A stretch of DNA of 64,000 nucleotides, taken from the IMG/VR virus record IMGVR_UViG_3300031997_002780, positions 7,919-71,918 of that record. One strand, written 5' to 3'. This DNA is from a virus. The position numbers were made by a program, and so were the translations under genes. Below the pieces are notes generated by a model. It made no database searches. It saw only the letters and a program-made list of their open reading frames with translations, and had not been told where the DNA came from. Shown piece by piece: positions 9,190 through 63,037 of this stretch (positions within the stretch are counted from its first letter, which is position 1; every line of letters begins with the position of its first letter).

Positions 9190-12100
9190 TGTAGTTAATA
9201 GAGTAATTGACTACGTTATTCCAGAAGCAAGTGAGGAAAGAAAAGAAACTACAAGAGAAATGATGTTGAATGGGTATTTTATACCCAATAGTCCTTGTCT
9301 TGTAAACGCTGGAAAATCAAACGGAGGTTTGGCGGCGTGTTTTGTAGTGGATTTTCCAGATAATATAGAAGGTATTTATAAAACAAAGTTAGATTTTGCA
9401 CTTATTGCACGTAAGGGCGGGGGTTGTGGTACTTCCCTTACAAAAATTAGACCAGAAGGTGCGAAAGTAGCAGGTAGTACACATGGCTATGCGGGAGGAG
9501 GAGTCAAGTTTGCTGATACGATTTCTCATGATGCAGATGCTCTTACACAATCAGGATTAAGTTTATCGAGTCCCTATAGAAAGTAATTTCTATAGAAAAC
9601 CTGAATATCGGTGAAAACCTAGTGATAGACAACACCGAGGCACTAATTATTTAGAGCCGTAACGACTAAGAAATTCATTATAGTAGAATTAGCTTTTTAG
9701 CTAAATCGAAGGAGTTTTATGATTACATTTGATTCGTTTGTTATATCTTCTTTATTAGGAGATGGATATTTACCAAAAGAGAGTATCTATTATTACGGAT
9801 TGTTTTTTCAACATTCCTTAAAACAAGAAGAGTATGCTTTATATAAAAAAAATATAGCTGAAAGTCTTGGTATGGATACAAAGGTTTATTATATTAATAA
9901 AAATTTTCCAGCAATAAGAGTTAAATGCTCTTTGGATAAATCCTATTTTAAAAAAATGAAGCATAAAATTTATCCAAACGGAAATAAGACAATAACAAGA
10001 AGTTTATTAAATTTATTAGATGCGGATGGTTTATCTTTGTGGTGGCAAGACGATGGGTGTTTATCAATATATAGACACCCCATAAAACATAACACAAGCC
10101 GTTATGGAAAACTATGCACACACGGATTTTCAAAAGAAGAAAATATTATTATTTCCAATTATTTTTCTACAGTGTGGAAAATTGAAACACAGGTAACAAT
10201 GGAAAAAGGAAAGTATTATTTTCAACGTTTAAATGCAACTAATTTAAATAAATTCTTTGATATAATAAATGTACACGAATCAATGAAGTATAAAACAGAT
10301 ATGAAATATACGAATTTCGTTCCAAGGGTATCCTAACTGAAAAGAAGGATAATGGTATAGTCTGAACTGCAACTATAATCTAAAAACGAAATTGCAGAAA
10401 TAAGCAGAAATGCTTATTCGCCTACTTTGTAGGTCATAAAAGTAACAGAATGTCCGAGCAATGGCAATTATGTTTACTGAATCTGTTTATCATCCAGATA
10501 TCTTAAAATTTATTGTTGCAAAGCATGAAGAAGGGCGCATATCTAACGCAAATATTTCAGTAGTAGTCGATGATGCGTTTATGAATGCAGTAGTAAACGA
10601 TGAAAAATATTGGACAGAATTTAATGGTGTTAAATATCAAGAGTATAGGGCAAGAGATGTATTCGAACTTATCGTAGAAGGCATGTGGAAAAACGGAGAA
10701 CCCGGAGTACTTTTCAAAACAAGGATTGATGATTCTCCTTATAAATATTCAGGACAAGAAATATTTGGTACTAACCCGTGTTCTAGCTGATTGTTTGGAA
10801 CACGTTAAAATTCCGTAAATTGCTGGAAACCCCAAAAGGGCAATCAGCAGCCAAGGCTCGAAAGAGCAAGGTTCAGAGACTAAGTAATAAATCAGGAAAG
10901 GAAATCTCTTCAATGAAGAAATTGAATTCAAAACAAATAAAGAAAGCATTATTTGGAATAACTCTTACAGATGGCAGTTGTATTGGTCAAAGGTTTTCTA
11001 TATATCTAAAAAACGAAGATTTTGTAAACAATATAGGGTTTATTTTGAGCAATATATCAGGAATATCAAAAATTCACAAAAAGGAAATTATAGATACTAG
11101 ATTTAATCCTCCTGCTATTGGATATAAACTTTGGACAACTAATCATGTTTATTTTGGAAAATTAAATAAAATCTTTTATGAAAACGGAAGAAAAAGAATA
11201 AACAAATATATTGTAGATAGATTAGATGAAACAGCTTTTGCTTATGCTTGGATGTGTGATGGTTATTTAGAGCACAAAAAAAATAGAAAAGCAAATAAAA
11301 TTCAAAACGAAGGTTGGTTTTGTTTAGAGAGTTTTCCAAAAGAAGAGTTAAGCTTAATAATAAATAGACTTAAATATTATAATATAGAATCGAGAGTTTC
11401 CCCTGTAGAATGGGGATATGGATATAGAATTTTAATAAGTGGTTTAAATTTACAAAGATTTATAGATATGATATATCCATATATTCTGGATTCTTTTAAA
11501 TATAAAACAATTATGTATTATAAGTCTATAGCTTCTGAATATGTTTTAACTGATTTATCCAACACGGAACACATTATTAAGCAATATAATAATGTTGATG
11601 ATATAGTCCGACACTCTTAGTAATAAGAGATTACAGAAATGGAACAACCGCTCCCTCCCAACGGGGTTTGCAATTTAGGTTCTATTGACTTATCAAAATT
11701 TTATTGTAAAGATGGAAACAAAAAAATAGATTGGCTAAAATTACAATATGTGACACGTTGGGGTATACGTTTTTTAGATGCTGTAATTAATAAAACATCA
11801 TTTCCCACAAAAGATATTGAGGAATGGGCTTTAAATAACCGTCCGGTAGGTTTTGGTGTAATGGGATATGCCGACCTTTGTTTAATGCAAGAAATTGCTT
11901 ATGGCTCACCTGAAGCATTAGAACTCCTGAGTGATATATTACGCTTTATCTCTATAGTTGCAGAAAACGAATCGATAAAAATGGGAAAAGAATATGGTGT
12001 ACCAAAGGCTTGTGAGAATTTACCTATTCCACGTAGAAATGTGACACTCACCACAATTGCACCTACAGGCACAATTAGTCTTTTAGCTAGTTGCTCTAGT

Positions 12101-12921: not shown

Positions 12922-12958
12922 AAAAAAATGGGTACGCAAAATTTGCGTACCCATTTTT
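12922..12958. terminator. Bidirectional intrinsic terminator between the convergent arms
   Basis: A-tract, ATGGGTACGCAAA / TTTGCGTACCCAT inverted repeat, T-tract. Confidence 0.9.
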
Positions 12959-31888: not shown

Positions 31889-34264
31889 TTAAATATCGTG
31901 AAAAACTTCTGTTTTAGCATAATATTGACTGTGATATACGTTACAATTTCCACCGTTACTTGAAAAAGCATAACCCACTCCACCATTGCTATCTGCAACA
32001 ATAGTAGAATTTTCCACAAGCAGGTCTACCCCTAAACCACTTATATATACAGAAACCGTAGAGCCAGAACCACATTGATAAGCATATATTTCACAACCCT
32101 TTATCCTAGAAATTTCACTTCCGCTAGTAGTTTCTGTGGCAATCACTGTATAAATTCCATCAGCACTATTTGCTTGATTTATAATCTTTAAATTTTCTAA
32201 AAGACAACCGGGTTCTATTGTGACTTGTCCTTCAATGATACTTTCACGGCTGCTAACTCCAACTAAATTAATCCCAGTGGGGATAGAGAAATTTCCAGTT
32301 ATATCTACATCGGGAAGAAATATTACATCCCCCACTCTTGCCGCAGTAATTGCCGCATTAAGACCAACAGGAGTTGGGTCATACATTGCCACACTAACCC
32401 CACCTGAAAATAAAGTTATTTTAATTTCGGTAAGACCGCTTCCACTTCCCCCACCTCCTACTAAGCCCCATAGATTAAGGGGTATGCCATTCCATAGCAA
32501 AGCATTTGATATAAGATTTATACTACCGGGATTAATATCAATTTTTTCTGCTGGCTGTATGCCTCCTACTGTTATTCCGGTGGTTAGATTTAAATATCCG
32601 GCTTTATAATCCCTTGTCCAATTGTTAAATGCTTGGGAATTTAGATTTATAGCTGTTCCCGCATTCAACGCCTTAGTCATTAAATCATTAAAGCGATATG
32701 TCTCATCATTTAGACGTAAACGATTTCCAAATATTAATTTAAAATTTGTGGGATTATCAAAATCTATATCTGCCCCTAATAGTATGGGTAACAAATATCT
32801 TCCTGGTTCTATTTCTAATGTAATTTTTTTTCCTAAGTCTAATTGCGCTCCGAAGGTTTGTAAATCTTTAATTTGCAAGAAATTAACACTATCGATTTCA
32901 AAACTATATCTCGGCATTGATATTTTTTCTAAAATACCTACGGCTTGATTATATAACGATGCTTGTTGTAATAATTTCGATGCAGAAGTCATAATATCTG
33001 TTAATATAATATTATCATTAACATATGATGATTGTATTATAAAAGGTTGTAGTTGATTTAATTGGTTCATACTGAAGTTAGCAGGATTATTAAAACTTAA
33101 ACTATCTGCTATTCCAGCAAGAATTGTAAAATGTCCATCCATATTGCTCTCTAATATTGCTATTTCTGCTTGTACAGCACTTGCCGCTGTATATAGTACC
33201 ATCAAATATTCATGAATTTCTACCATTGTTTGGTCATCTATACTGCTTCCGCTTTGCAAATAAAAATTATATTGTGTTTGCCATGTGAGAGCAGAACCAG
33301 AAATGGTTGCTAATTGAATATCGTGGTCCATTTTATCTTCACTATCTTCAAATAAACTTAATATTTGAAAACTATATGATGGCATAAAATCTGAATATTT
33401 ATTTTCCCATTCCCCTATAGCGTCTATTAAAGATGAATCCATCCATTCTGTATTTTTAAAATATTGAAAATTATATATATAATTATTTCCTAATGGATTA
33501 ACATAAGTGATACCTAAATCACCACCACCAACAACAAAAAGGCAAGTAGCTAATTCATCTGTTACTTCATCAACTGTCATTGACGTAATTACATTATCAT
33601 GTGAGATAAATATATCTGTTAATTCTATATCTTCATTGGCATCATAAACAAATATCACATCATTAATCGTATCGAAATCAAAGATGCATTCATAGGCTTC
33701 TTCGATATCAGTCATTAAAAGATTATAAATACTCGTATCTGCTACATCAAAACTTCTGTATTTAGTATCAATTATATCAGGAATAATATCAAACGTCCAA
33801 CCAGCAAGATATTGCTGTAATTCAATATATAATTGTGTTAGAGTAACAGGAATTGGACCAAGCGATATTAGACTCCCGCTTGAATCATATAAACCATTTC
33901 CAGATACAAACGATGTTAATTTTCTAGATGACAATTCTACTTCTAAAGATTGGCAATCAACTTCTTTATATTTAATAATACCGTCATTATTTTCATTAAT
34001 ACCAGTTATCATGAAATATCCTATACTATCAACATATACTAATCTTCTATTGACAATATATGCATAATATGGCATTAAAATTCCATCAATATATTCATCT
34101 GCTCGAAAATTTAATTCGGAAATAGCATTGTATCTTGGAGTATATTTTCTTTCTGATATTCCCCCTAGTGCATATAATTTTTCTTTGTTCGGGTTACATA
34201 ATGTGAAGGTTGGAATCTCCGCTAGATTAAAAAAATCGAAGTTTATACTTGGAATTCCTGTCAT
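31889..34264 (-). CDS. Baseplate hub / Tal-like tail protein with a C-terminal beta-helix-like domain
   Basis: Follows Dit; LCNPNK, SEL.F, C.SLE.EL, FDFDT, VNPLGNNYIYNF.YF, PRYSFEID and GNR patterns. Confidence 0.75.
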   Translation of the reverse strand: MTGIPSINFDFFNLAEIPTFTLCNPNKEKLYALGGISERKYTPRYNAISELNFRADEYIDGILMPYYAYIVNRRLVYVDSIGYFMITGINENNDGIIKYKEVDCQSLEVELSSRKLTSFVSGNGLYDSSGSLISLGPIPVTLTQLYIELQQYLAGWTFDIIPDIIDTKYRSFDVADTSIYNLLMTDIEEAYECIFDFDTINDVIFVYDANEDIELTDIFISHDNVITSMTVDEVTDELATCLFVVGGGDLGITYVNPLGNNYIYNFQYFKNTEWMDSSLIDAIGEWENKYSDFMPSYSFQILSLFEDSEDKMDHDIQLATISGSALTWQTQYNFYLQSGSSIDDQTMVEIHEYLMVLYTAASAVQAEIAILESNMDGHFTILAGIADSLSFNNPANFSMNQLNQLQPFIIQSSYVNDNIILTDIMTSASKLLQQASLYNQAVGILEKISMPRYSFEIDSVNFLQIKDLQTFGAQLDLGKKITLEIEPGRYLLPILLGADIDFDNPTNFKLIFGNRLRLNDETYRFNDLMTKALNAGTAINLNSQAFNNWTRDYKAGYLNLTTGITVGGIQPAEKIDINPGSINLISNALLWNGIPLNLWGLVGGGGSGSGLTEIKITLFSGGVSVAMYDPTPVGLNAAITAARVGDVIFLPDVDITGNFSIPTGINLVGVSSRESIIEGQVTIEPGCLLENLKIINQANSADGIYTVIATETTSGSEISRIKGCEIYAYQCGSGSTVSVYISGLGVDLLVENSTIVADSNGGVGYAFSSNGGNCNVYHSQYYAKTEVFHDI

Positions 34265-34265
34265 T

Positions 34266-35069
34266 TTAGCCTCCTATTTTAAACCTCTCTGTAAATTTAA
34301 TTTCAAATAAATCAACTGTTTGCGGAGAAGAAACTGCTACAAGATTAATTTTTGGTATTAACCTAAACCAATAATTATTAAAATAAGTTAATAAACCAGT
34401 TGTATCTGATGTTATCATTTGCATATCATTATTTATTGTAGCTTCTATTGAAGCAGATGGCATATCTGTAAAACCAAACATCCTCTCATTATCTGAATAA
34501 TTAGTCATGTAAAAAGATGAGGGGGTTGCCCCACTCATTATAAAATGAACTGTTGGATATAGATATTCATCTTCGCTGGATGAGTTATAAATTTCAAGCA
34601 TTGCTGTGGATGTAGAAGAAGCACTTCCTGAAATAGTTTTTTCTGGTCCATAAGCCCAAGGACTATCACAAGATACTGTACATGTGAAAGCATAGTTCAT
34701 GTTTCCTATATATTGAGGTTCTGGATTAGTCATAAAACAATTAAAATAAGCCCCGTTTAAATCGTCTTGTAAAATATACAGTTTTTTATATTCCGCTCTA
34801 CCAAACAACCACGCAGAAATAAGGTCTCTGTCCATTGCACTGATAGGTCTTTGTGTAGCAAAAGTTAGGGGGAACTCTAAAACCGGTTCCTGTGTTCTGC
34901 CCAAAAAATAAATTTTTGATTTCCTTAAAACTCTTTGCGACAAAATATTCACATTCGCACTCCCCACACCAGAGAAAAGCCCGGCGCTCTCAAAGGTTAC
35001 AATCTTGAGGTCGAAAGTTGCAGATGGAATTCCATCATAAGAAAAGTCGAACGCATAGAAAGAACTCAT
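34266..35069 (-). CDS. Distal tail protein (Dit-like)
   Basis: F.YDGI.S..F.L, PVLEF, I.AWLF, CDSPWAY, IYNSS...YLYP, FRLIP..N; downstream of the tape measure gene. Confidence 0.8.
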   Translation of the reverse strand: MSSFYAFDFSYDGIPSATFDLKIVTFESAGLFSGVGSANVNILSQRVLRKSKIYFLGRTQEPVLEFPLTFATQRPISAMDRDLISAWLFGRAEYKKLYILQDDLNGAYFNCFMTNPEPQYIGNMNYAFTCTVSCDSPWAYGPEKTISGSASSTSTAMLEIYNSSSEDEYLYPTVHFIMSGATPSSFYMTNYSDNERMFGFTDMPSASIEATINNDMQMITSDTTGLLTYFNNYWFRLIPKINLVAVSSPQTVDLFEIKFTERFKIGG

Positions 35070-35071
35070 TT

Positions 35072-35896
35072 TTAACCTCCTTTTTCCATAAACATATTAT
35101 ATATATGTTTCCAACTCTCCCCTTTTAAAATATGATTAATATTTTTAGAAGAACATTTTTTTGAATATTTATCTGAAATTTCTTTTTTTGTAAATTTTTT
35201 AATAAAAAATGAATCTAGAATATCTAAAACATCTGATTCCTTAAGTATTGCTTTAGGGTTGTTTTCTCCTGTTCGGTTAGGATGATTTTCGGACATATTC
35301 TTTTTTGTCTCTTCAGAATGATGTTTTCCGAAAAAAGGATTATTTTCTCCAGATGAATCCCAATGATTTTTAGACATTTTCTTTTTTGTTTCTTCTAGCC
35401 TAGTTTTTCCTTTGTTAGAATTTGATATTCTTGTTTTTGTTTCTTCTGAACAATGTTTTCCAAAATTAGGATTATTTTCCCCTTTGTTAATTTCTCTTAA
35501 TTTGTTTTTTGTTTCTTCCGAGAGATGCCTTCCTTTGCCTAACTTTTTATGAGATTCTCTTAATTTTATTTTTGTTTCTTCTGATGTAACACGTCCGGAA
35601 GAACCATCCCCTCCTTTTGTCATATTATAACCAAATTCCGGATTATTGGTTTTATATTCCTTTATCCAATATATTTCTTTTTCTAACAAAATATTTTCTT
35701 CACAGTTTTCTATAATCCATAATTTAAAATTTTCTTTTCCATATTTACACCATGCTTTTCGAAGATGGTCATTTTTATGAATATTATTATTTAATTCTCT
35801 TTTATGAGCATTCCATCTTTTATTAATATTTACTGATTTTCCTATATATTTTTTATTGTTTATCATATTTTCTATACAATAGATTCCTGTTTCCAT
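35072..35896 (-). CDS. GIY-YIG homing endonuclease with NUMOD3 repeats
   Basis: GIYCIEN..N.KKYIG.S, GYN.T.GG, repeated GENNP.FGKH.SEETK. Confidence 0.9.
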   Translation of the reverse strand: METGIYCIENMINNKKYIGKSVNINKRWNAHKRELNNNIHKNDHLRKAWCKYGKENFKLWIIENCEENILLEKEIYWIKEYKTNNPEFGYNMTKGGDGSSGRVTSEETKIKLRESHKKLGKGRHLSEETKNKLREINKGENNPNFGKHCSEETKTRISNSNKGKTRLEETKKKMSKNHWDSSGENNPFFGKHHSEETKKNMSENHPNRTGENNPKAILKESDVLDILDSFFIKKFTKKEISDKYSKKCSSKNINHILKGESWKHIYNMFMEKGG

Positions 35897-35908
35897 TCTA
35901 TTCTCCTG

Positions 35909-35983
35909 TACTCCAAAAAATAAGAATGGGAAACGGGAGTCTCGTTTATCGGATGATTCATGAGGTCATCCTATCCCATTCTT
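35909..35983 (-). ncRNA. Candidate structured RNA (three-way junction plus pseudoknot), copy 1
   Basis: Minus strand: AAGAATGGGA TA GGATGA CCTCATGAA TCATCC GATAA ACG AGACTCC CGT T TCCCATTCTT ATTTTTT GGAGT. Same architecture as 60010-60090. Confidence 0.65.
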
Positions 35984-35989
35984 TTTAAT

Positions 35990-38900
35990 TTATATAGCAA
36001 ACGAATCCGCTGTCCTTCTTATACCCCTTCTTTCGAGGCTTTTATTTATTTCTTTGATTACATCTTTTTTAAGTTTAGGTAATACTGTTTTATCTAAAGA
36101 ACCGTTTACATTTATGTTCATTTCAAAGTTCATATCCCTATAAGTATTTTCACGAGGATTGGATGATATTGGTCTTGTCAATTCTCCCGAAGAACGTTGA
36201 GTTGGAGAGATTATTTTAATTGCTTCTATATTAAAACTGGGAGGTTGAGGAGAACCGTTTTTACCCATTGGCTCTACATCTAATCGATTTTTCCCTCTAA
36301 GTTTTAAAGATTTCTCTTTTTCTGAGAACATATTATTGATTTCTGTAGCTATATTAGGGAGTGTTTTTCTCAAGAAGGTTTTCATTTGGTCTTCTGTAGC
36401 TACATATTCCCCTTTTAATAGTTTAGCAAAAACTTCACTGTCTTTTAAAGTTCCTTCAAATACATCTGGTCCATGTTCAGAAGCAAAACCACCTTCATGA
36501 CGAGGAGGACGAGGAGGAGGAGGGATGACGGGAGGAGTGACGGGAGGAGTAGTAGGAACTATTATTGCTGGACCCATAGGAGGTGTCCAACCGCTAGGTC
36601 CGGGATTTAGAGGTCCAGCATTAAACGCCGCCTCTGCTGCTGCTCTTGCATTATTGCTTTCTGTTATTAATCGTTTCATTTCTTCTATTGTTACATTGAT
36701 AGCTTTTGTTAAATCCCCATATTTTGCAATATTAATATCAAGCATTCTCTGCATTGCTGCGTCATTAAATGCTCCCACTATCCCGTTTTCTATCATTTTT
36801 AGTCTTAATTGTTCAAGAGCCGATAGCATACCCCCGCCACCGGGACCACCACCCATAGCCTTTGTAATTTCATTAATTAAATCTAATTCATCCTGAAGTA
36901 CTTCTATTTTATCGCCTATTAATTCTATTTGGTCTTCAATAGGCTTTTTTAAATCCTCTATTGCTCGCTTTTCATCCTCGTATTGGTGTATTATTAAATC
37001 AATGGCTTCTTGTTGCAGAGTAAGTGGATATATTAGTTCATCTAAAGCTACTTTTTGCTGTTCTAGCGGGTATATTAAGTCTTCTATTCTTATTTTTTCT
37101 TGTTCTAAACGAAATATAGCATCTTCTATTGGTATCTTTTGTTGTTCTAGACCATATATTATGTCATTTATTCTTAGTTTTTCAGCTTCAAGAGGTACTA
37201 TTAGAGCGTCTATCGCTTCTTTTTGTGTATTATATTTGTCTATAATCTCTTGAATTTTAGCTATTTGGTCATCGAGTAATGCTTTTTGCGCATTCATACC
37301 CTTTTCAAAAGCCGCATATGCATCATCTAAACCGCGTACTTGAAGGTCATATTCTCTATCTTCTTGAGTCTTAGCTAAATCTTCTCTAGCTGCGGCAGCT
37401 TCTTCTTCTAATTTTAATCTTCTTGCTATACCTTCTTCGCTGGTATCTAAAGATGCAATAGCAATTTCGGCTTCCAAGTTAGCGAGGGCTTTGTTCTTTT
37501 TAGTAAGTTCATCTAAGAAGTCCGCTTCTTCTTTTCGAAGTTGTAAAGCTTCTTTTTGTAAATCGATAGCTTCTTTAAAACTGCTAAGTTGTTTATCAAT
37601 TGCATCTTTCTGCTCTTCCAAAGGTTTTATTAATTCTTCTTGAGCATCTATTAAACTATCAATAAGCTCTTTTTGCCGTTCATACATTTCTATTTCACGG
37701 TCAATTAAGGATATTTCCCTTTGATACATTTCTATTTGACGGTCAATTTCGGCTGTTAGCCTATTGAGCATTTCTACTTGACGGTCAAGTAAATCTATCT
37801 GCTGTTGAAGTACATCTATTTGACGGTCAATTGCGTCTTTTTGCTTTTCATAAATATCTATCTGGTCTTGAATTACTTCTTTCTTTCTATTTTCTATTTC
37901 TATTAAATCATCAATGGCATCTATTTGTTCATCATAGATTTCCAATTGTTCTTGCATTAATTCTATTTCGTCTTCGTATGCTTTTATTTGTTTTTCAAGC
38001 GCTTCTGCTCGTGGGTCTTTCTTTTGACCACCGCCACCAGATGGGGCAGCAGGAAGATTTATAGGGGCAGGTTCATATGGAGTTAGATTTGTAACAAACT
38101 TAAAAAGGTCTGCCATATATTTAGCTAAATCAGCCATAATTTTAGCTGTTTTTTGACCTGATTGTATAGCTGCACTTTCAAAACTCAATAGTTGTGCCGC
38201 TAAAGCCGCTTGTAATTGTTGAACGGTAGTTAGAGAATTACCATTTATATCTGTAAAAACAATACCTTGATTTTCGGCTATAGAAAACAATTGTTGTGCT
38301 ATAGTTTGAGTCATTTGTGTCCATTGAGCTTCAGTTACAGCAGCCATTGCTCCAGTTTCATTTGTATATTCAACTAAAGTAGTGTTTGCAGTACCAGCTA
38401 AAGCAATCAGTTTATTTATTAATGAATTATATAAAATATCATTGGTAGACAATAAATCTGCATTAGTCATCATCCAAGAGATTAATTCTGTTCTATATGC
38501 TTGTACCTTTGCGGGGTCTAATGCTGTTCCAGCCGCATTATCAAGGTCATTAAATGATTTTATTGGAATTTCTAAACCTGTATCTTTGGCTAATTTTTCT
38601 AACTCGGTATTTGTTTGAAGTATAGCATCTGAAAGAGCAATACTATTATCACCCGTTTGCATTAAAGCTTTACCAAGAGCATCAAGAGATGGAGAAAGTT
38701 GGTCTATAATTTGCATTTGAGCTTTAAATTCAGCATTTAATTGCTCTGTTGTTGCTGTAGCTGATGTTGCACCATATTTTTCATAAAATGCTTTTTCTGC
38801 TGCTAAACGTGCTTCTCCTATTTGATTTTGATAATCTACTTCCGCTTCTTTCATAGCTGCTAATAATTCAGGATTATTTGCAGCAGCTAGTTCCATTGCC

Positions 38901-41824
38901 ATTCTAATATTTTTATATTCAGGCTCTGCCCGATGAGCAACCATCATATACATCTTTTTCCAATCGTTTGCTTGCTTACTTATCAAGCCTTTATTACTGG
39001 AAACAGACGAACTTGCTGCTTGAACCCAACCAGTCATCATATTTTGAAGTACTTGCCCTGATGTTCCATCTTTCATTGCTTTTTCGAGAGCATCGGCAAG
39101 GTCTTTATCCATTTGAGTTGCTGTAGGAACAAAAACAGATTTTCCACCCATTACCGGAATCCATTCCCCTTGATTTTTTACACTATCTATATAGGCTTTA
39201 GCTTCTGCATCTATATTTTCAGTACCTTTTTCAATTATTCCGTTTAAAGTGTTCCGTTTTTGTATTGCTTCATCTATAGCTTTATTCGCATCGGTTGTCA
39301 TTTTTGCTTGGTCAGAAAAATATGTTGCAATATCTTGATTTCCTAATGTTGTTGCAAGATAATAATCTACAGTAGCTTTTTCTAAATCTTCCATGTTTTG
39401 ACCAGCAACCAGTGTAGCATTTCCGAATTCATCAAAACTATATTTTAAATTAGGAACAACACTATATAAATCATTATATAATTTTGTTAATTTTTCTTCG
39501 TCTTCAGTACTTAATCCTTCGCTTGAACGTCTAGCTATCATAATTTGTATTTGATTGTACAAATCTATAGCGGTTTTTTGTTTTTCAGGAAATTCATCAA
39601 GAATTCCTAGATAATCATTTACTGCTTTAGTAAGTTCTTCTTGAGCCTTTTTTACATTATCGAGATTTTTTTGATATGCTTGCCAAATAGCAGTTATTGC
39701 TATAGCAGCTATTCCTAATAAACCCATAGCTGCGTTGAGTGCTGTTGTTGCTGCTGCTGCTCCTGTTGCAGCAATCTTATATGTCCCTGCTGCATATCCC
39801 ATTCCCTCCAAAGTAACAACCAAGGAATCTCCTGTAATCATAGATAAAGTTTGAGCAATGGTCATATCTATCTGAGAAATAGTTGCAAGTTTTTGTTGTG
39901 TAACCAAAGATACAAGACTCATAACAAGGTTTTTAATATTTTTTCCGGTATTTATTAAAGTATTCGTAATTGATTCTCTGTTGAAAATTATCATTAGAGC
40001 AATTATTTCTACAAGTAAAGGAGGTATTCCCCCGATAGAATCTATAAACTTTACTACAGCAATAGCTGCATCTAGGAACCATTTTATCATATTAGAATTA
40101 ACTGTTCCACTATAAAGAGCTTGCATTGCGGCTGTAAGTTGACCTTGTTTAGCTTGAACACTTTCTAAATAAATACCATAACGGTTCATTGCTAAACCAG
40201 TAGCATCAGTTTGGGCTGCTTGATATTGAAGAGCTTTGTCCATATTATTCATCAAAACAAGAAATGCCTCTTTTTGACGTACACCACCAATAGCGACAGC
40301 GATTTCTATTTGTTCTCTTTCGCCTAAAGTATCCCATTTAGCAGCGGTATCTTCTAACACATCGCCCATATTACGGAAAGTACCATCGGCTTCTTTCATA
40401 GAAATACCAACAGCATCTAATGATTTTTGAACTTTACTGATTGTCCAACCTTCTTCGTCTGTACCACCCCCTTGAATAAGGGTCATTCTAGCAAACATGG
40501 TCTTGAATGCTTGACCAATCATTTCTGCGTTCTGTCTGGTAACAGTAGAAACAGTACCAATATATGAAATTAATTGTTCCATACCAACACCAGCTAAAGC
40601 AGCCGATTCAGAAGTATATCTTAAAGCAGTTGCAAGTTCACCTGCACTGGTTGCGGCTATATTATCAACCGCAATAAGTTTATCAACAACAGTTGCAGTA
40701 TCACTAACCGATACTTTAAAAGCATTTGTGATAGATGTTAAATAGTTAGTAGCATCGGCAGAATCCATTGCACCCAATTTAGAAAGCATCATAGATGCTC
40801 TCATAAGTTTCTGAGTTTCATCAACCGTTCTACCCTGTCTAAACCATTCCACACTACCTTTTGCGATTTCAAGAGTAGAAGCTCCCATCTCCTGACCTAA
40901 TTTGTTAAAAGATTGGGCTAAATCATTAATTTGTTCTGGTGTTTGTGCTCCTTCTGCTTGAAGTACCTGAATTTTAGTCATTTCAGTATTCAAATCAATG
41001 GCGTATTTCACAGCATCGTTGAATAATTGTTGAGCTTTATATACTAATCCAATAGAAAAAGAATAGGCGATGGTCTGTTGGATGGCATTAGCAATTCTAT
41101 TGGAAAAACTCTGAAATACATTTGCACCAGTTTTTGTACCTTCCATTGCAGTATTCATTCCCGCAAATGCGTCTCTCAATTTTTTCACATTATCTGCGGT
41201 GAGTTCTCCCGCTTTCCCTAATCTTGTAAAAGTTTCTATCTCATTTTTTAGTGCAGCAACAGATTGTTTTGCTGCACTAACCTGAGTACCCCTCATTCCA
41301 GATAATTTTTTTTCGTTTTTATCAGCCGCAGCAGTATATCTTGTTAAATCACCTGCCATTTTGTCAGTATCAGTTGAAGTCAATTTTACTATCTGCTGAA
41401 ACTTTTCCATAGCCTGAGATTCTGAAAGAAGTTTAACTTTCCCTTCGTCTATAGCTTTCTGTAAATTTTTTTCTGTCTGCGTATAATCTTTTGCTATTTT
41501 TGTAGTTCCACCAAATGCATCTCCGAGTTCTTTAACTTCCCCGGTTTGAATTTTAAATATTCCTTTTTCTGTTTTAATAGTTTTAAAAGTTGCTATTAAT
41601 TTTCCAGTTCCGAGAGTAGCCGCATCAGTCATTTTTGTAAATTCTTCAATACCACCTAGCATGTTAACCATGCTTTTACCTTCCCGCATAGCAGGTAAGT
41701 CAAGCTTAAATGACTTGGATGCTTGGGAAAGTTTAGCATTCATATCGGCTACCGTTTTATCAACAGAACTCGGCATAAACACTGTCGTGACAGGAAATAC
41801 AATCTCTAAACCACCACTAGCCAT
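35990..41824 (-). CDS. Tape measure protein (1944 aa)
   Basis: TP901-like core (EIAKGSVEWFRQG, DKL.AVDN.AATS..ELA.AL, IG.AFKTMFARM), long coiled coil, and C-terminal HEGG...EVFAKLLKGEYV. Confidence 0.92.
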   Translation of the reverse strand: MASGGLEIVFPVTTVFMPSSVDKTVADMNAKLSQASKSFKLDLPAMREGKSMVNMLGGIEEFTKMTDAATLGTGKLIATFKTIKTEKGIFKIQTGEVKELGDAFGGTTKIAKDYTQTEKNLQKAIDEGKVKLLSESQAMEKFQQIVKLTSTDTDKMAGDLTRYTAAADKNEKKLSGMRGTQVSAAKQSVAALKNEIETFTRLGKAGELTADNVKKLRDAFAGMNTAMEGTKTGANVFQSFSNRIANAIQQTIAYSFSIGLVYKAQQLFNDAVKYAIDLNTEMTKIQVLQAEGAQTPEQINDLAQSFNKLGQEMGASTLEIAKGSVEWFRQGRTVDETQKLMRASMMLSKLGAMDSADATNYLTSITNAFKVSVSDTATVVDKLIAVDNIAATSAGELATALRYTSESAALAGVGMEQLISYIGTVSTVTRQNAEMIGQAFKTMFARMTLIQGGGTDEEGWTISKVQKSLDAVGISMKEADGTFRNMGDVLEDTAAKWDTLGEREQIEIAVAIGGVRQKEAFLVLMNNMDKALQYQAAQTDATGLAMNRYGIYLESVQAKQGQLTAAMQALYSGTVNSNMIKWFLDAAIAVVKFIDSIGGIPPLLVEIIALMIIFNRESITNTLINTGKNIKNLVMSLVSLVTQQKLATISQIDMTIAQTLSMITGDSLVVTLEGMGYAAGTYKIAATGAAAATTALNAAMGLLGIAAIAITAIWQAYQKNLDNVKKAQEELTKAVNDYLGILDEFPEKQKTAIDLYNQIQIMIARRSSEGLSTEDEEKLTKLYNDLYSVVPNLKYSFDEFGNATLVAGQNMEDLEKATVDYYLATTLGNQDIATYFSDQAKMTTDANKAIDEAIQKRNTLNGIIEKGTENIDAEAKAYIDSVKNQGEWIPVMGGKSVFVPTATQMDKDLADALEKAMKDGTSGQVLQNMMTGWVQAASSSVSSNKGLISKQANDWKKMYMMVAHRAEPEYKNIRMAMELAAANNPELLAAMKEAEVDYQNQIGEARLAAEKAFYEKYGATSATATTEQLNAEFKAQMQIIDQLSPSLDALGKALMQTGDNSIALSDAILQTNTELEKLAKDTGLEIPIKSFNDLDNAAGTALDPAKVQAYRTELISWMMTNADLLSTNDILYNSLINKLIALAGTANTTLVEYTNETGAMAAVTEAQWTQMTQTIAQQLFSIAENQGIVFTDINGNSLTTVQQLQAALAAQLLSFESAAIQSGQKTAKIMADLAKYMADLFKFVTNLTPYEPAPINLPAAPSGGGGQKKDPRAEALEKQIKAYEDEIELMQEQLEIYDEQIDAIDDLIEIENRKKEVIQDQIDIYEKQKDAIDRQIDVLQQQIDLLDRQVEMLNRLTAEIDRQIEMYQREISLIDREIEMYERQKELIDSLIDAQEELIKPLEEQKDAIDKQLSSFKEAIDLQKEALQLRKEEADFLDELTKKNKALANLEAEIAIASLDTSEEGIARRLKLEEEAAAAREDLAKTQEDREYDLQVRGLDDAYAAFEKGMNAQKALLDDQIAKIQEIIDKYNTQKEAIDALIVPLEAEKLRINDIIYGLEQQKIPIEDAIFRLEQEKIRIEDLIYPLEQQKVALDELIYPLTLQQEAIDLIIHQYEDEKRAIEDLKKPIEDQIELIGDKIEVLQDELDLINEITKAMGGGPGGGGMLSALEQLRLKMIENGIVGAFNDAAMQRMLDINIAKYGDLTKAINVTIEEMKRLITESNNARAAAEAAFNAGPLNPGPSGWTPPMGPAIIVPTTPPVTPPVIPPPPRPPRHEGGFASEHGPDVFEGTLKDSEVFAKLLKGEYVATEDQMKTFLRKTLPNIATEINNMFSEKEKSLKLRGKNRLDVEPMGKNGSPQPPSFNIEAIKIISPTQRSSGELTRPISSNPRENTYRDMNFEMNINVNGSLDKTVLPKLKKDVIKEINKSLERRGIRRTADSFAI

Positions 41825-57588: not shown

Positions 57589-59364
57589 TTAGATTTTTCC
57601 ACCGCGCCCTAAATTTTGTCCACCGCTCCGGGTATCCTCAGTTTCCTCTGAGATTTTTGTTATATCTTCTTGGGGTCTACCTGGCTTAGCGGGTTGTCCC
57701 GTAGCAGTTGTTTTTCCCTCGGGTTTAGCAGGAGTTGCCACACCGGGTACACCGGGGGCAGGTTTTGGATTCAATTTAGCTTGTTTTTCTGCAACCTTTT
57801 CTTGATTTTTAGCAGTTTGGTCTGCTAACTCCCGCTGGTTTTTAGCAGTTTGGTCAGTTAAATCTTTTTGCTGTTTACCTGTTATTTCCGCTATTTGCTT
57901 TTGACCTTCGAGAGCGGGTGGTTTAATCAAATCCATAAACCCACTCCCTTGTGCTTCTTCCAACTGTTTTCTTAATTGAGCGGGTTTCATTCCTATAGCA
58001 GCCGCTATTTTTTGAGGTAAAATAATCCCCACATTAAACAAAGTCATTATAGATTCTAATCTTTGTTGTCTGTTTAGGAAAAATTGTGTACCTTCAAAAA
58101 CAAATTTAAATTTAAACATCTTAGTGAATTTATTAATATAATAATTCATAAAGATATTAAATTGGTCATATAGCGCTGTCATCATTTGCTCATCAACATT
58201 CAAACTCAATTGAGTTTCAAGAACATTTGGCTTAATATCGCTTGTAAATATCAAGTTTGTGTTTACACCACTAGAAGCCAGTGTTGTTTTTAAATAACTA
58301 TCGTATAACTCATTTTCTGAGTCAAAACTAATACCCTTCATATCTTCCAAAGGCGCAGAAGCAACTTTAATAGCTTCATTAATACTGCTTTTTACTAATG
58401 CTAAGAATTTACCAAGTAAATCAGGGCTAATAGCAATCATATCTTTTACACTTGCTTTAGCGTCTCTGTTTAGCATTGGAACTTGACCGATAATCATTTT
58501 ACTTGCCGCAGCCATAGTTGCTTGCTTTTGAAGATTACGCATTAAAGATTGTAAAATCAAATCACTAAACAAAGGTGTAAAATATGGCAATCTAGTTGCG
58601 AGTTCAGGAGAATATTTAAAACATACACCAACATCGATAGGAATATCAACCCAATAAATCCAAGTCGAATTTCTCATCTCCGGTGGCATGGAAGGTATAT
58701 ATGGTTTTTGCTGATTTCCGTTTACCCATATTTCTTTATATTTCTTTCTAAAGAAATCTGGATACATGTTGATATCAACCCCAGGAATTAAAAACCAAAA
58801 CATATTAAAACTGAATAGAAAGCCACCTTCCCATCTTCCGGTTATTTTGCAATAATCGGCAGGAAGTTCTTGTAAAACAATACTATCTCCTAAATCTCTA
58901 ATAGCAGCAAAATATGCATCATTCCTTACCATTTGTTTAACAGCAATAGATAATTCTTTTTTATAAGCGAATTTTTCTAGAATGTCTTCTACTGTTTTTA
59001 GGTCTTTTTTATATTTCGGGGTTTCATAATCTTTAAGTTCTGCACTTGATGTATATGTAATATCAAACGCAAGCATATCAGCCATATAGGTGATAAGCCT
59101 TTTATAAACCATAGATTTCATTTCGAAATCTTGAGAAAAAGAGCGAAGTTGCAATTCGCTATCTTTAGGCGAAGAAAGTGCTGTATTAAGTTCACTTTCT
59201 GTAGCCGCCATTGGATTTAGGGTAATATCACGCATGCGTTGATTAATAAGTTCGGGGGTTAAATAGCCCTGTCCGTACATATTTGTCATTGCACGAGCAA
59301 ACTCTATAACTGACCAAACATTTTCTTCACTGATTAAATTTTCTTCATTTGTTTTATCTGTCAT
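57589..59364 (-). CDS. Portal protein
   Basis: 591 aa directly after the terminase; LR..S......YKR, LQELPADYCKITG....G..FSFN..F. Confidence 0.8.
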   Translation of the reverse strand: MTDKTNEENLISEENVWSVIEFARAMTNMYGQGYLTPELINQRMRDITLNPMAATESELNTALSSPKDSELQLRSFSQDFEMKSMVYKRLITYMADMLAFDITYTSSAELKDYETPKYKKDLKTVEDILEKFAYKKELSIAVKQMVRNDAYFAAIRDLGDSIVLQELPADYCKITGRWEGGFLFSFNMFWFLIPGVDINMYPDFFRKKYKEIWVNGNQQKPYIPSMPPEMRNSTWIYWVDIPIDVGVCFKYSPELATRLPYFTPLFSDLILQSLMRNLQKQATMAAASKMIIGQVPMLNRDAKASVKDMIAISPDLLGKFLALVKSSINEAIKVASAPLEDMKGISFDSENELYDSYLKTTLASSGVNTNLIFTSDIKPNVLETQLSLNVDEQMMTALYDQFNIFMNYYINKFTKMFKFKFVFEGTQFFLNRQQRLESIMTLFNVGIILPQKIAAAIGMKPAQLRKQLEEAQGSGFMDLIKPPALEGQKQIAEITGKQQKDLTDQTAKNQRELADQTAKNQEKVAEKQAKLNPKPAPGVPGVATPAKPEGKTTATGQPAKPGRPQEDITKISEETEDTRSGGQNLGRGGKI

Positions 59365-59989
59365 CTTGTGTTCTCCTTTCTAACCAATATCTTTTTAAAG
59401 ATTCGGAGAGTTTCTTTTTGGTTTCTTCGGAGTGTTTATATTTGCCCTTTTTTCTTGAAGGATTGTTTTTAAAGTATTCCGACAATTTTTCTTTTGTTTT
59501 TTCTAAAACGATATGATTCTTGTGACCATTCGACCTGTTTATATAAGCAATTTCTTTTTGGTCGTCGGTCCAATTTATAATTGTATTTTTTCTTTTTTTT
59601 ATTTGTTCTTTCGTTTGTTTTTTACCTTTTTGAGAATTAGACATTTTTATTTTTGTTTCTTCAGAATGTATATGCCCGGGAATTCCGTCTCCTCCATCTG
59701 TCATATTATAACCTGTATTTTTTGTATTGTATAGAGAAATATAAAAAATTTCTTTTTCTATTAATTCGCTTTCTTTACATTCTTCTATAATCCACAATTT
59801 GAAATTTTCTTCTCCATATTTATCCCACGCATTTTGAAGATGTTTGTTATCATGAATTTTATTTTTTAATTTCCATTTATGGTCAGACCATCTTGTTGTT
59901 ATATTTTTTCCTTTTCCAATATATTTCTTTTCATTAACTATATTTTCAATACAATAAATTCCTGTTTTAGTATAAATACTTTTTAGCAT
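59354..59989 (-). CDS. GIY-YIG homing endonuclease with NUMOD3 repeats
   Basis: GIYCIENIVN.KKYIG, GYNMTDGGDG, HSEETK.K.S. Confidence 0.9.
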   Translation of the reverse strand: MLKSIYTKTGIYCIENIVNEKKYIGKGKNITTRWSDHKWKLKNKIHDNKHLQNAWDKYGEENFKLWIIEECKESELIEKEIFYISLYNTKNTGYNMTDGGDGIPGHIHSEETKIKMSNSQKGKKQTKEQIKKRKNTIINWTDDQKEIAYINRSNGHKNHIVLEKTKEKLSEYFKNNPSRKKGKYKHSEETKKKLSESLKRYWLERRTQDDR

Positions 59990-60009
59990 AATTACCTCCT
60001 ATGGTAATT

Positions 60010-60090
60010 TCCTAATATATTTATTGAACGGAAGGAATTTAGGATTATTCTTTTCAAAATTGTTCATGACACAATTTCTATCCGTTCAAT
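60010..60090 (-). ncRNA. Candidate structured RNA (three-way junction plus pseudoknot), copy 2
   Basis: Minus strand: ATTGAACGGA TAG AAATTGT GTCATGA ACAATTT T GAAAA GAAT AATCCTAA ATTC CT TCCGTTCAAT AAATATA TTAGGA. Confidence 0.65.
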
Positions 60091-60095
60091 TATAT

Positions 60096-63037
60096 TTAAC
60101 CTCCTGATACTACAAACGACACACCTAGAAAAGCTTCCTCATCATCCCATTCGTTATATCTAAATCCTAATAATTCAATATCCATTAAAGATACATAGTA
60201 ATTAAGATAACTAACAGATGTATAACGGTCTTTTCTAGCACCACTTGGTTCGACCAATTTTACTAAACCGTTTGCGGGAGCCATTTCTAAAGCGATACTC
60301 TCGTTTATAAATAAGCTTGTTTGTAGATGGGATTGTAATAGATATGCTCTAATACCAGTATCGTCTTGGTCTAAGATATCTTTATTTCCTGACCTTATTA
60401 AAAATTCTTCTTCGCTATTATCATCAATTAAAAATGCGATTAATTTTTTCTTTAATCTCTCTCTAAATTTAACAGCAATTAGAGAGTTTAAAGGAGCAGT
60501 AGCAGAGATAGGAAATATACAGGCAAACGCATCTCTTCCGAGTGTTCTACCTATTAATTCATCATATACTTTCTGGTCAACTAATGCAGAATTCATTACG
60601 GTATAAGGTTTATATTCAACTCCTCTTATTTCATCCTTTGTTACTGAAGTTAGTGCATCAAAAACACTTATTCCTGCACTCGCTAAATCTAGAACGAGAG
60701 CATCTCCTTGAAATTCTTCGAATATTTGTTTTATTCTTAAAGCTTGTAAATTAGTATTTTTACCATTGTGGGATTCCATATAAACTATTTCTGTCATCCA
60801 ACCTTTTTTACTAGGTAATAATCTACCACAACTTATAATAGTATTATCGTTTGTAGAACCTGCCCTCATAGCAATATCAACAGAGACTATGCGCATTTCA
60901 TCAGATAGTTTTGGTATATCATAGTTATTTTTTCTGGTTGTCAAATATACTTCATCCCTGATTGGTCTCCAACTTCTTTTTATATTTCTATCGAATAGTC
61001 CGAGTTTATAAAAAGAAAGACTTGAAGAACCATAAGGTATATTTCCATACTCCATTAAAAAAGTTATGGGGTCCATATTGGACCTCTCTCTTATCATCTG
61101 ATTTTTTGTCTTTATACCATGATGAATTGAAATCGGGTAATCCAAAAACAATGCTTTGGTATTAGTATCCCCGTCTGCAATCATTTTTAAGAATTTCTTC
61201 GTTTCTGGATACCATTCATATGATTTGTAATGTGCAGAAGAAATAATAATCTCTTGTGGTTCCTCTCTAAGTTCTGCAATTTCTGAATATTTAGGATTTT
61301 TCATATAAGGTGCTTGGCGTGAAACAAGAAAGGGACGGATAATAGAATCTATAATTTCGTTGGGTATTAAACGTCTTTCTTCTAAAACTGTTACATTGCT
61401 GCGGTGCATTTGTTATCTGCGAAACTTTTTATTTTCGCATTCTTGAAATTTTTTTCTTTCAAGTTCAGCATATCTTTTTACCCCATTGGGGTAGGCGCAC
61501 TCTTGGATAAATTATATTCCATTTCGGGGTTCATCATCTATGCGTTGCGTGTGGCTATTTTTTTAATAATAGTCTTCCACTCGGATTAGCTTCTCAGCTT
61601 TCCCGTTTCTTGCGCCATTTTAAACGAACATTACTGCTCGTTGAAGCCATATAAATGTTTGTATTTTTTATATTTCTTATATTTTCTATCTAAAAATATA
61701 TTAGCATTATCATAGATATTAGAAAAAAATATCCTATGACTTTCTTTTCCTGTTAATCCACAATCAAAACCATCTTTGCTAATAAAAGTCTTTATATTAT
61801 ATTTGTTTAAAAATTCTTGGAAAGATTTTTTAAAATCTATAGAACCCGATGTTATTTTAGCTCTAAGCTGATTGCTTCTTTTGTCATAATAAATAGACCC
61901 ATCACCATCAAAATATCCTCGAATAAAACACCATATTAAATACTTGTTATCTAATTCAGGAAATTTAATATTCAAAGATTTATTTTTATAAACACCTAAT
62001 AGATTTAAATCGGAAACCATCTCTTTACTAAATATTCTTATTTGACAAATATAAGATATCCCAGTAAACTTTTCTTTTATATATCTAGGTTTTTTTTCAA
62101 AAAACGTTACAGGAACATTTCCATTTAAGCATTTATTAAATTTTTTTAAGTGTTCAAAATCATCCTTTTGTAATTGTATTGCTAATTCTTTATAAGAAGA
62201 AATATAACCGTCAGCATAAATAAACCCAAGCCAATATGCTGAAAACTCATTCAGTGGGGTCTTGAAAAAATCTATATCAAACATATATTTTCTTTCATTT
62301 TTTAAACCGAGCTTACATCTTTTGTTTTCAACAGACGATTCACTTCTCCCTAATTGTTTAGACATTTCTTTGATTGACATTTTAGGATGATTTTCTAAAA
62401 CAAAATCTATTTCTTCTTTTTTCCATTCTGATTGCATTTTATATGTTCCTCCATTTGGATTTATTTATATAAAATTATATTTAAACAAACATTTATTTTA
62501 TTAACCTCTACCGCCTTCTCCACTTACAACCACATTAATTTTTGAGCCATTAAAGAAGTCCATACGCCATTGATTCTGATTAGAAACGAGGTTAGAACAT
62601 TCTCTAGCGATATTGGGGTGCTCGTCTCTTAAAGACCTGCACTTTTCCGAAATAATTAGACCAGCTTGTGCTTTTGTAGAAGAAGCTAAAGCAACAGTAG
62701 TACCGGGATATAAAATACATCTCGCTATCGCTGCCACCCCTATTAACCAACTTTTAGCCGAAGCACGAGATGCTATTCCTACAAATTCTGTACTACGTGC
62801 CATTAGATTAATCCAAAAACGCTGATACGGATAGAGTTGCACACCCATGTAATGTTCCACAAAATATGATGGATTGTTCCGATAAAATGTGGTCCAACTT
62901 TTAATACGGTCACGCTTTGCTTGAGACATTTCCTTTTCCCCGACAAATTTTATCGGTTCATTGGCTCTAGTGTAATGCTTCATGTTTTTAAGTGGAGGAG
63001 TTAATGATTTTTTGTTTTTTTTCATGTTTTTCTCCAA
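60096..63037 (-). CDS. terL: Terminase large subunit; exons 63037-62504 and 61406-60096 (614 aa spliced)
   Basis: LYPYQ, ASRASAKS (Walker A-like), NGS.I; spliced GRG-HRSNVTVLEE (Walker B region); ISSA, MEY, SVDIA, KDRYTS. Confidence 0.88.
61407..62503 (-). mobile_element. Group I intron in terL (1097 nt)
   Basis: Exon ends GGU and pairs with IGS GCUUC; intron begins TAA; core AAACGGGAAAG..AATCCGAG; P7 GCATA/TATGC in AAGATATGCTGAAC; ends AACAAATG. Splicing is in frame. Confidence 0.87.
61631..62437 (-). CDS. Intron-encoded LAGLIDADG homing endonuclease with an N-terminal HTH
   Basis: AYWLGFIYADG and FIRGYFDGDG motifs. Confidence 0.92.
   Translation of the reverse strand: MQSEWKKEEIDFVLENHPKMSIKEMSKQLGRSESSVENKRCKLGLKNERKYMFDIDFFKTPLNEFSAYWLGFIYADGYISSYKELAIQLQKDDFEHLKKFNKCLNGNVPVTFFEKKPRYIKEKFTGISYICQIRIFSKEMVSDLNLLGVYKNKSLNIKFPELDNKYLIWCFIRGYFDGDGSIYYDKRSNQLRAKITSGSIDFKKSFQEFLNKYNIKTFISKDGFDCGLTGKESHRIFFSNIYDNANIFLDRKYKKYKKYKHLYGFNEQ

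Follow-up and report, generated by a model that had tools for sequence, protein, structure and literature searches.

A Leader RNA Related to int-alpA Precedes Homing Endonuclease Genes of a Provirus and May Meter Their Translation

Introduction

Two homing endonuclease genes of the provirus recorded in IMG/VR as IMGVR_UViG_3300031997_002780 are each preceded by a copy of a structured RNA motif, which is described here from a 64-kb window of the 71.9-kb record (the window being the whole stretch of DNA analysed, 64,000 nucleotides, positions 7,919 to 71,918). Both copies belong to a large family of structured leader RNAs that spans several phyla. Judged by its joints and helices, the motif is a sister branch, with a longer second helix (P2), of the Rfam motif int-alpA (RF02996), and the Rfam model leaves it unannotated. 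Its function would most likely be cis-acting control of translation, with a layout similar to that of the C4 RNA of phage P1. More specifically, it may be a self-folding leader of 62-68 nt in which the loop of the third helix (L3) toggles between a segment just downstream of the fold (site 1) and the ribosome-binding site of the next gene (site 2), thus metering the translation of that gene; the probability of this reading is put at roughly 0.5.

int-alpA is an orphan motif of Rfam. A larger sister branch that its model misses is now shown, and this branch is linked to free-standing homing endonuclease genes of several families. The mechanism offered is concrete, with one loop and two like targets, one of which is the ribosome-binding site. 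If true, it would explain the restraint of selfish nucleases in phages outside the T4 group, and would constitute a compact natural translation insulator or switch.

Structure of the Two Copies

Both copies are read on the minus strand and share one architecture: a first helix of 10 bp (P1), the joint UA, P2, the joint GAHAA, the third helix (P3), the joint (C)U and the return strand of P1, followed by a 7-nt linker and a complement of L3. The minimum-free-energy fold (RNAfold) is exactly this three-way junction in both cases, in agreement with the initial annotation, which had proposed the same fold in front of both GIY-YIG genes.

Copy 1 (35922..35983, minus strand), delimited by sequence reading and RNAfold, scores 77.5 bits (E 2e-21) with R2, the family covariance model described below. 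Its P1 is AAGAATGGGA/TCCCATTCTT (35983-35974 with 35931-35922), and joint J12 is UA (TA in DNA, 35973-35972). P2 has 6 pairs, GGATGA/TCATCC (35971-35966 with 35956-35951), and is closed by the 9-nt loop L2 (35965-35957; CCTCATGAA as DNA, CCUCAUGAA as RNA). It is followed by J23, GAUAA (GATAA, 35950-35946), P3, ACG/CGT (35945-35943 with 35935-35933), L3, AGACUCC (AGACTCC, 35942-35936), and J31, U (35932). Beyond P1, at 35910..35921 on the minus strand, the sequence continues with the linker AUUUUUU (35921-35915) and site 1, GGAGU (35914-35910), which is the putative pseudoknot partner of L3: ACTCC of the loop is complementary to GGAGT, with a predicted duplex energy of -5.8 kcal/mol. Site 2 lies in the ribosome-binding region (35894..35906, minus strand), where GGAG of the Shine-Dalgarno sequence (35906-35903) precedes the ATG (35896-35894) and is complementary to CUCC of the same loop (predicted duplex, -5.0 kcal/mol).

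Copy 2 (60023..60090, minus strand; same methods) scores 44.5 bits with R2 (E 4e-11). Here, P1 is ATTGAACGGA/TCCGTTCAAT (60090-60081 with 60032-60023), J12 is UA (60080-60079), and P2 is GAAATTGT/ACAATTTT (60078-60071 with 60063-60056), for which the initial annotation had given 7 pairs; there are 8 when a G-U is counted. L2 is the 7-nt GUCAUGA (GTCATGA, 60070-60064), J23 is GAAAA (60055-60051), P3 is GAAT/ATTC (60050-60047 with 60038-60035), L3 is AATCCTAA as DNA and AAUCCUAA as RNA (60046-60039), and J31 is CU (60034-60033). The sequence then runs through the linker AAAUAUA (60022-60016) into site 1, UUAGGA (60015-60010), the two spanning 60010..60022 on the minus strand, and UCCUAA of L3 pairs with this site (predicted, -5.3 kcal/mol). 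In the ribosome-binding region (59987..60009, minus strand; sequence and RNAfold; ATG at 59989-59987), the hairpin AAUUACC/GGUAAUU exposes site 2, UAGGA (60001-59997), as part of its loop and masks some of GGAGG. The L3/site-2 duplex is predicted at -5.6 kcal/mol, so that the site-1 and site-2 energies are nearly equal within each window copy.

The complementarity of the P3 loop to a segment 7 nt past P1, claimed earlier, is thus seen in both copies, and the family statistics given below agree with it. The stems of the two copies differ in nearly every letter and still pair, as had been noticed, and covariation is found in the homologues as well. A conserved joint 'TAG' had also been proposed; TA is indeed conserved, but the G is the first base of P2 and not part of the joint.

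The fold of copy 2 has a z-score of -3.83, with none of 200 shuffles as good; for copy 1, the z-score is -1.78, with 9 of 200 shuffles as good. The window DNA recurs in sediment metagenome runs, and the natural variants found in four of these runs keep the pairing of copy 1, with A-U changed to G-U at 35945 (P3) and G-C to G-U at 35951 (P2). When copy 1 is folded together with its start region (window 35880-35995, minus strand, 116 nt), a long hairpin is preferred (-30 kcal/mol, z -3.06), whose pairing buries the Shine-Dalgarno sequence and the AUG under the P1 3' strand and the U-rich linker. This hairpin was considered as a family trait and rejected, the P1 3' strand scoring -5.36 kcal/mol against the start region versus -5.23 +/- 0.22 kcal/mol when swapped between members. 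Separately, the P1 5' strand of copy 1, AAGAAUGGGA, resembles AGAAUGGAAA at the start codon.

Homologues and Covariation

When the 64-kb window was searched with a covariance model of copy 1 only (R1), copy 2 came out as the best match apart from copy 1 itself (22.8 bits, E 3e-4). The model also matched a third example, in front of a GIY-YIG gene on the IMG/VR contig L001, with 35.2 bits. A descriptor (P1 of at least 7 bp, TA, P2, GANAA, P3, 0-3 nt, P1 return) applied to 112 GIY-YIG loci and the genome returned only motif-like places, including the loci L083 and L021. The first of these was found by the descriptor only; the GIY-YIG protein encoded behind its motif shares 63% identity with the second nuclease of the window.

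More members were collected from IMG/VR by sequence patterns. The pattern GATAG-N5-6-CCTCATGAA-N6-7-GAHAA retrieved 22 stretches, and the same pattern with AAGTCATGAG in place of CCTCATGAA at least 120. Looser patterns were tried and given up, as they gave mostly non-motif DNA among the matches listed, 117 stretches leading to 5 descriptor matches, 2 of which were accepted. Model R2 was then built from 47 instances picked by R1 in 100 pattern-fetched loci; it contains neither window copy, although its training set was selected with the copy 1 model. MAFFT alignments fell out of register and were not used, the models being built through cmsearch alignments. On the window, R2 places the two copies well above the next match (16.3 bits), and the rest of the genome holds no further match. 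In the 100 loci, it identifies 111 instances, often several per contig.

In the R2 alignment, standard pairs fill 95.2% of the pair cells, as compared with 64.0% after shuffling and 46-51% with slid partners. Both sides vary in 17 of the 19 pairs, and compensatory cells number 564, against 154 expected. The initial annotation had called for homologues and covariation to be sought with a covariance model, and both are found; a chance origin of the shared fold is therefore excluded. Together with the loop-swap permutations presented below, these data uphold the view of a conserved, covarying RNA with a real pseudoknot. The simple terminator that had been named as an alternative does not hold: no terminator-like site is called at either copy. 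Terminator identity was rejected for the family too, a U run being missing in GC-rich members.

Relation to int-alpA

Rfam 15 gives no match on the window at the gathering cut-off. At E <= 10, only chance-level microRNA, snoRNA and sRNA rows appear around both copies; int-alpA is unlisted, and no known self-cleaving ribozyme or riboswitch family appears at either copy. The link to int-alpA emerged from a gathering scan of 15 family loci, where RF02996 (cut-off, 35.8 bits) matches L187 with 46 bits, an instance with a short P2 and a GACG loop found earlier by the descriptor. A second short-P2 instance, on L271, reaches 40.4 bits, and the same contig carries a long-P2 copy. None of the long-P2 instances in the 15 scanned loci passed the cut-off; the GC-rich long-P2 instance of L365 scores 29.8 bits, its P2 being treated as an insertion. 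Conversely, R2 gives the short-P2 members 30.9 and 29.3 bits.

The two branches share the order of helices and the joints, which are UA, GAAAA and CU in int-alpA and in copy 2, and UA, GAUAA and U in copy 1. In the int-alpA consensus, as in both window copies, the P3 loop (..CCuUu..) faces a complementary tail after P1 (..AgGG). They differ in P2, which has 4 pairs and a GACG(U) loop in int-alpA, while the long-P2 branch has 6-8 pairs and a loop of 7-10 nt with UCAUGA or another self-complementary hexamer. Unlike int-alpA, the long-P2 branch closes P1 with G-A/U-C, and the window copies are AT-rich, without an Rfam match. The sister-branch placement thus relies on the common joints, helices and tail match and on the cross-scores of RF02996 and R2. 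The motif had been described as an unnamed family, which is right insofar as the Rfam models miss the window copies, but it now appears as a long-P2 relative of a named one.

The int-alpA motif owes its name to the integrase and alpA genes of integrative elements. The setting of the window copies is different, since they precede GIY-YIG genes lying between virion genes. The motif reportedly stems from Weinberg et al. 2017. A term search of the main text of that paper finds no mention of int-alpA, and its supplements may already show the pseudoknot. In the portions of articles returned by a full-text literature search, 'int-alpA' occurs only as a gene order or a bare Rfam name, with no functional study found. 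Likewise, the excerpts returned for homing endonucleases combined with RNA motifs, riboswitch candidates or DUF1376 contain no description of such a leader.

Pairing of the P3 Loop with Two Sites

Pairing across the family was assessed with one representative per distinct L3 (n = 73), the null being L3 swapped between members in 300 permutations. With site 1, taken as the first 24 nt after P1, at least 5 bp can form in 66 of the 73 members, versus 24.6 +/- 3.9 after swapping (maximum, 36), usually at an offset of 6-10 nt after P1. With site 2, taken as the 20 nt before the start codon, 44 of the 73 reach 5 bp, versus 21.3 +/- 3.4 (maximum, 30). The first 60 coding nucleotides contain no L3 match beyond the control (4.06 vs 3.97). 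In 97 of 102 members, the chosen start codon is found 16-46 nt beyond P1, and motif and gene always share a strand.

The L3/site-2 match is not a mere likeness to Shine-Dalgarno sequences, because many members repeat other letters at both sites. Examples are TGCGGA, GTCGG, AATGGGTGCAG and TCAGAGAA, each met twice, as well as CAAGG, GGTGGG and an 11-mer in L257. As the P3 loop also matches the ribosome-binding site, a translational role, already put forward among several possibilities in the initial annotation, is the best reading.

Possible Mechanisms

In the proposed mechanism, L3 would serve as an anti-ribosome-binding-site loop. Parked on site 1, it would leave the ribosome-binding site open; paired with site 2, it would block initiation. 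Which of the two partners is within reach of L3 would depend on the conserved junction and the P2 loop. The leader could in this way meter the translation of a potentially harmful gene, here a homing endonuclease, wherever the cassette lands. Candidate triggers are a ligand, a protein, dimerisation of the RNA through its self-complementary P2 loop, or trans-acting free fragments of the leader.

Control of this kind has parallels. According to passages of PMC2988022, structures formed over the ribosome-binding sites repress T4-type homing endonuclease genes (e.g., I-TevI, I-TevII, I-TevIII, segB and Aeh1 mobE). The likeness lies in an RNA structure that covers this site and so limits how much homing endonuclease is translated, from intron-encoded and free-standing genes alike (PMC2988022). 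The T4-type structures, however, are simple hairpins particular to single lineages, which contain the ribosome-binding site and are relieved by an internal late promoter, whereas the window motif is a conserved multi-helix fold lying wholly upstream of the ribosome-binding site, which it would reach by one loop.

A closer parallel in layout is the C4 RNA of phages P1 and P7 (RF01695; c4-a1b1, RF03163), which forms a three-way junction within the leader of its own target operon, with a hairpin loop complementary to the ribosome-binding site of the next gene; in the window, this is seen as complementarity only. RNase P frees C4 as a ~77-nt RNA, which acts in trans, and the CI RNA of P4 is its analogue. 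By record annotation and sequence, P1 has the target a2 4 nt after the C4 junction, b2 at the icd ribosome-binding site, and the spare targets a1/b1. The present leader could, by analogy, be a co-transcribed antisense RNA, the junction being cut from the leader (for example, in the A/U-rich linker) to give a stable small RNA that blocks site 2, and site 1, of newly made transcripts in trans, for dosage feedback or immunity. Besides the matching positions of a2 and b2, the composition of the linker (50% U, 31% A), the presence of several copies per phage contig and one member before a Bro-N antirepressor-like gene speak for this. Nevertheless, the C4-clan models find no match on the window, although Rfam C4 scores 68.8 bits on P1 c4 as a control, and R2 reaches at best 6.9 bits on P1 47000-50000. 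C4 has two antisense elements (a', b'), as opposed to one loop with two like targets, and its spare targets lie upstream. Spare L3 targets placed as in P1 were looked for, and the 80 nt upstream of the motif gave no signal beyond the control (4.23 vs 4.24). A CCA-like tail helps RNase P, and none was seen here. Where one phage has several copies, their L3 differ and each fits the gene behind it, a pattern equally compatible with cis action. Release as an antisense RNA is unlikely.

The joints suggest a further possibility. Among 109 unique members, J12 is UA in 108 and J23 is GAAAA in 55, GACAA in 27 and GATAA in 21 (103 together), figures that are inflated because these positions were partly fixed by the fetch patterns. 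The patterns do not fix the partner of the A preceding UA, which is U in 97 of 97 distinct rows. Such near-invariant joints, the same L2 ten-mer across many phyla, and two mutually exclusive partners for one loop, a typical expression platform, would suit a riboswitch of the ON type, where a small molecule or ion locks L3 on site 1 and frees the ribosome-binding site, the ligand-free L3 reaching site 2. The downstream genes (nucleases, DUF1376, antirepressor), however, indicate no metabolite, P2 and L2 are swapped wholesale between branches (GACG loop versus UCAUGA loops), and the inflation of the joint figures removes part of the argument, so that a riboswitch seems distinctly unlikely.

The P2 loop usually holds a self-complementary hexamer, UCAUGA in the window copies. 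Loops collected independently of the patterns carry others, namely UAAUUA (three instances), UUAUAA, UUGCAA (L021) and UAAUUG (with G-U), and keep the 2-6-1 layout, which is also that of the HIV-1 dimerisation loop. The remaining loops are GACG (two in the set, plus L187), UCGCG (L083) and one of 13 nt. The self-complementary hexamers therefore suggest loop-loop dimerisation via P2. The P1 5' strand is 78% purine; a triplex with the U-rich linker is conceivable. L2 as an anticodon-like or AUG-displaying loop and CsrA-type GGA sites were dropped by eye, several members having no AUG or GGA; the cores of hammerhead, twister, pistol and hatchet ribozymes were dropped in the same way, the joints being too short for a hammerhead core.

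Promoter-like signals bear on the position of the leader in its transcript. Among 107 members, 58 hexamers resembling a -10 box cluster 11-17 nt before J12, 26 of them at exactly 15 nt, so that about half of the family would begin at a predicted transcript start. In copy 1, TATAAA lies at exactly 15 nt and overlaps the stop codon of the tape measure gene. Such a start, at the foot of P1, together with the purine-rich P1 5' strand and the U-rich linker, would fit a mere insulator or stabiliser at a 5' end or between genes, a compact knot that protects the mRNA end and shields the ribosome-binding site, the L3/site-2 match being a by-product. This is improbable: it leaves unexplained why site 2 tracks L3 in members whose sites are not Shine-Dalgarno-like, and a sigma-70 promoter scan calls none at copy 1 and only two sites at copy 2, at chance level (1.9 expected).

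The same predicted starts bear on a self-cleaving ribozyme, or an RNase processing signal, that would separate the nuclease message from the upstream late transcript. A small junction and pseudoknot with conserved joints are typical of small ribozymes, and both window copies begin 5-6 nt past the upstream stop codon. With no ribozyme family matching at E <= 10, many members lying where there is nothing to cut off, and an L3/site-2 match unnecessary for cleavage, this explanation is very improbable.

Several points weigh against the toggling leader as well. The site-2 signal is the weaker one (mean score, 4.63 vs 3.39), the start codons were chosen by our own heuristic, and the permutation figures overstate independence, because the members are related. 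The covariation counts come from an alignment fitted to the model, on loci retrieved with patterns that prescribe GATAG, the L2 string and GAHAA. Site 1 is transcribed before site 2 and pairs equally well or better, so that 'open' may be no more than the default state. L2 and the joints are strongly conserved across phyla, beyond what an antisense loop would require. Finally, the promoter scan and the terminator scan call nothing convincing at either window copy, and none of the sequencing runs matching window 34000-38000 is an RNA run.

Downstream Genes and Hosts

Pfam was run on 97 distinct downstream proteins, with families overlapping within proteins, so that the counts are not additive. 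The most frequent family is DUF1376 (16 proteins), followed by GIY-YIG (13), HNH (11), NUMOD3 (10), DUF4379 (9), AP2 and HNH_5 (5 each), HNH_3 and CapR (4 each), HNH_4 (3), and HNH_2 and LAGLIDADG_3 (2 each). Single-protein scans give the same picture, plus one Bro-N antirepressor-like gene. Homing endonucleases (GIY-YIG, HNH types and LAGLIDADG) and DUF1376 make up most of the downstream genes. The leader thus accompanies free-standing homing endonucleases, whose nuclease folds number at least three, as well as further genes of mobile elements, and these counts show that it is not tied to one fold. The RNA-plus-endonuclease module of the initial annotation stands as far as the link to endonuclease genes is concerned, but not as one specific to GIY-YIG, since HNH-type, LAGLIDADG, DUF1376, DUF4379 and Bro-N genes also lie downstream. 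Direct binding of the RNA by the nuclease is unlikely, because unrelated nuclease families carry the same RNA. In the converse direction, only 2 of 100 GIY-YIG loci fetched by protein similarity have an R2 match at E <= 0.01; the motif is directly before the GIY-YIG gene in L001 and before a different gene in L021.

The AAGTCATGAG pattern retrieved 29 stretches in one-genome-per-species records, 17 of which were confirmed by R2. The labels of these 17 include Lysinibacillus, Virgibacillus, Fictibacillus, Clostridium, Acetobacterium, Oscillospiraceae, Zetaproteobacteria, Syntrophales/Smithella, Planctomycetota/Kuenenia and Spirochaetota. An identical L2 ten-mer is thus shared by genomes with the labels Bacillota, Zetaproteobacteria, Syntrophales, Planctomycetota and Spirochaetota.

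A wider and more doubtful proposal would extend the toggling leader to the whole int-alpA superfamily, as a phylum-spanning, self-contained translational toggle whose loop is parked on a built-in decoy and freed by a conserved signal, either a junction ligand or P2-loop dimerisation sensing its own concentration. As a portable promoter-plus-leader cassette, it might render mobile-element genes, among them homing endonucleases with three or more unrelated folds, harmless at any site of insertion.

Some loci deserve separate mention. L296, on the same contig as L001, carries three leaders within 4 kb (9922-9985, 7593-7655 and 6268-6328, minus strand), each with its own small gene, two of them GIY-YIG and one encoding a 200-aa protein; the P3 loop is identical in two of these leaders, and one has an odd 13-nt P2 loop. 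On L021, a RAGATH-18 RNA (RF03064; 1165-1232, plus strand; 52.8 bits, above the gathering score) lies ~100 nt before a GIY-YIG gene (match 1338-1772), with an int-alpA-like leader 1.3 kb beyond it. A second, unrelated structured RNA thus also precedes a homing endonuclease gene. L075 (1300-1500) and L002 (850-1040) share a seemingly structured stretch that, by eye only, has the look of a group I intron; it precedes the GIY-YIG genes most similar to the first nuclease of the window (43-44% identity). Transfer RNA genes occur within ~1 kb of int-alpA-like leaders on L187 (3953-4023 and 4389-4467, minus strand) and L236 (767-843, plus strand).

Genomic Setting in the Window

The late genes of the window lie on the minus strand in the open reading frame (ORF) map. 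Protein comparison and Pfam identify five GIY-YIG paralogs in the whole genome, and only the two motif-bearing genes have an upstream gap. This agrees with the earlier remark on a sizeable gap at these genes alone; in the remaining two GIY-YIG genes of the window, the start overlaps the upstream ORF or falls 20 nt past its end. The first motif-bearing gene (35072..35896, minus strand; Pfam, ORFs) encodes a 274-aa homing endonuclease with GIY-YIG and NUMOD3 domains. With copy 1, it is inserted between the tape measure gene (35990-41824), whose product has 1944 aa and a PhageMin_Tail match (Pfam), and the distal-tail-protein gene (34266-35069). The second gene (59354..59989, minus strand; Pfam, ORFs) encodes a 211-aa GIY-YIG and NUMOD3 homing endonuclease. 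It and copy 2 come after a 437-aa ORF (60096-61409), without a Pfam match at E <= 0.001, and before a 591-aa ORF.

Searches with blastn against GenBank phages gave only weak coding matches for the copy 1 region (25 records, 60-80% identity) and no match for the copy 2 region. In four sediment DNA runs, no contig joins across the endonuclease cassette, which is uninformative on mobility, and contigs X4 record 1 and X7 record 26 span the tape measure gene, the motif and the nuclease gene. Within the tape measure gene, contigs of other sediment runs carry 616 different letters instead of the 622 at window 36244-36867, and others have skips of 775-816 bp at window 37084-37901. This suggests length or cassette variation of the gene among relatives.

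Elsewhere in the window, a perfect hairpin, AAAAATGGGT...ACCCATTTTT (12924-12958), stands where plus- and minus-strand gene blocks converge (ORF ends, 12913 and 13246). It matches R1 and R2 in P1 only, and looks like a two-way terminator.

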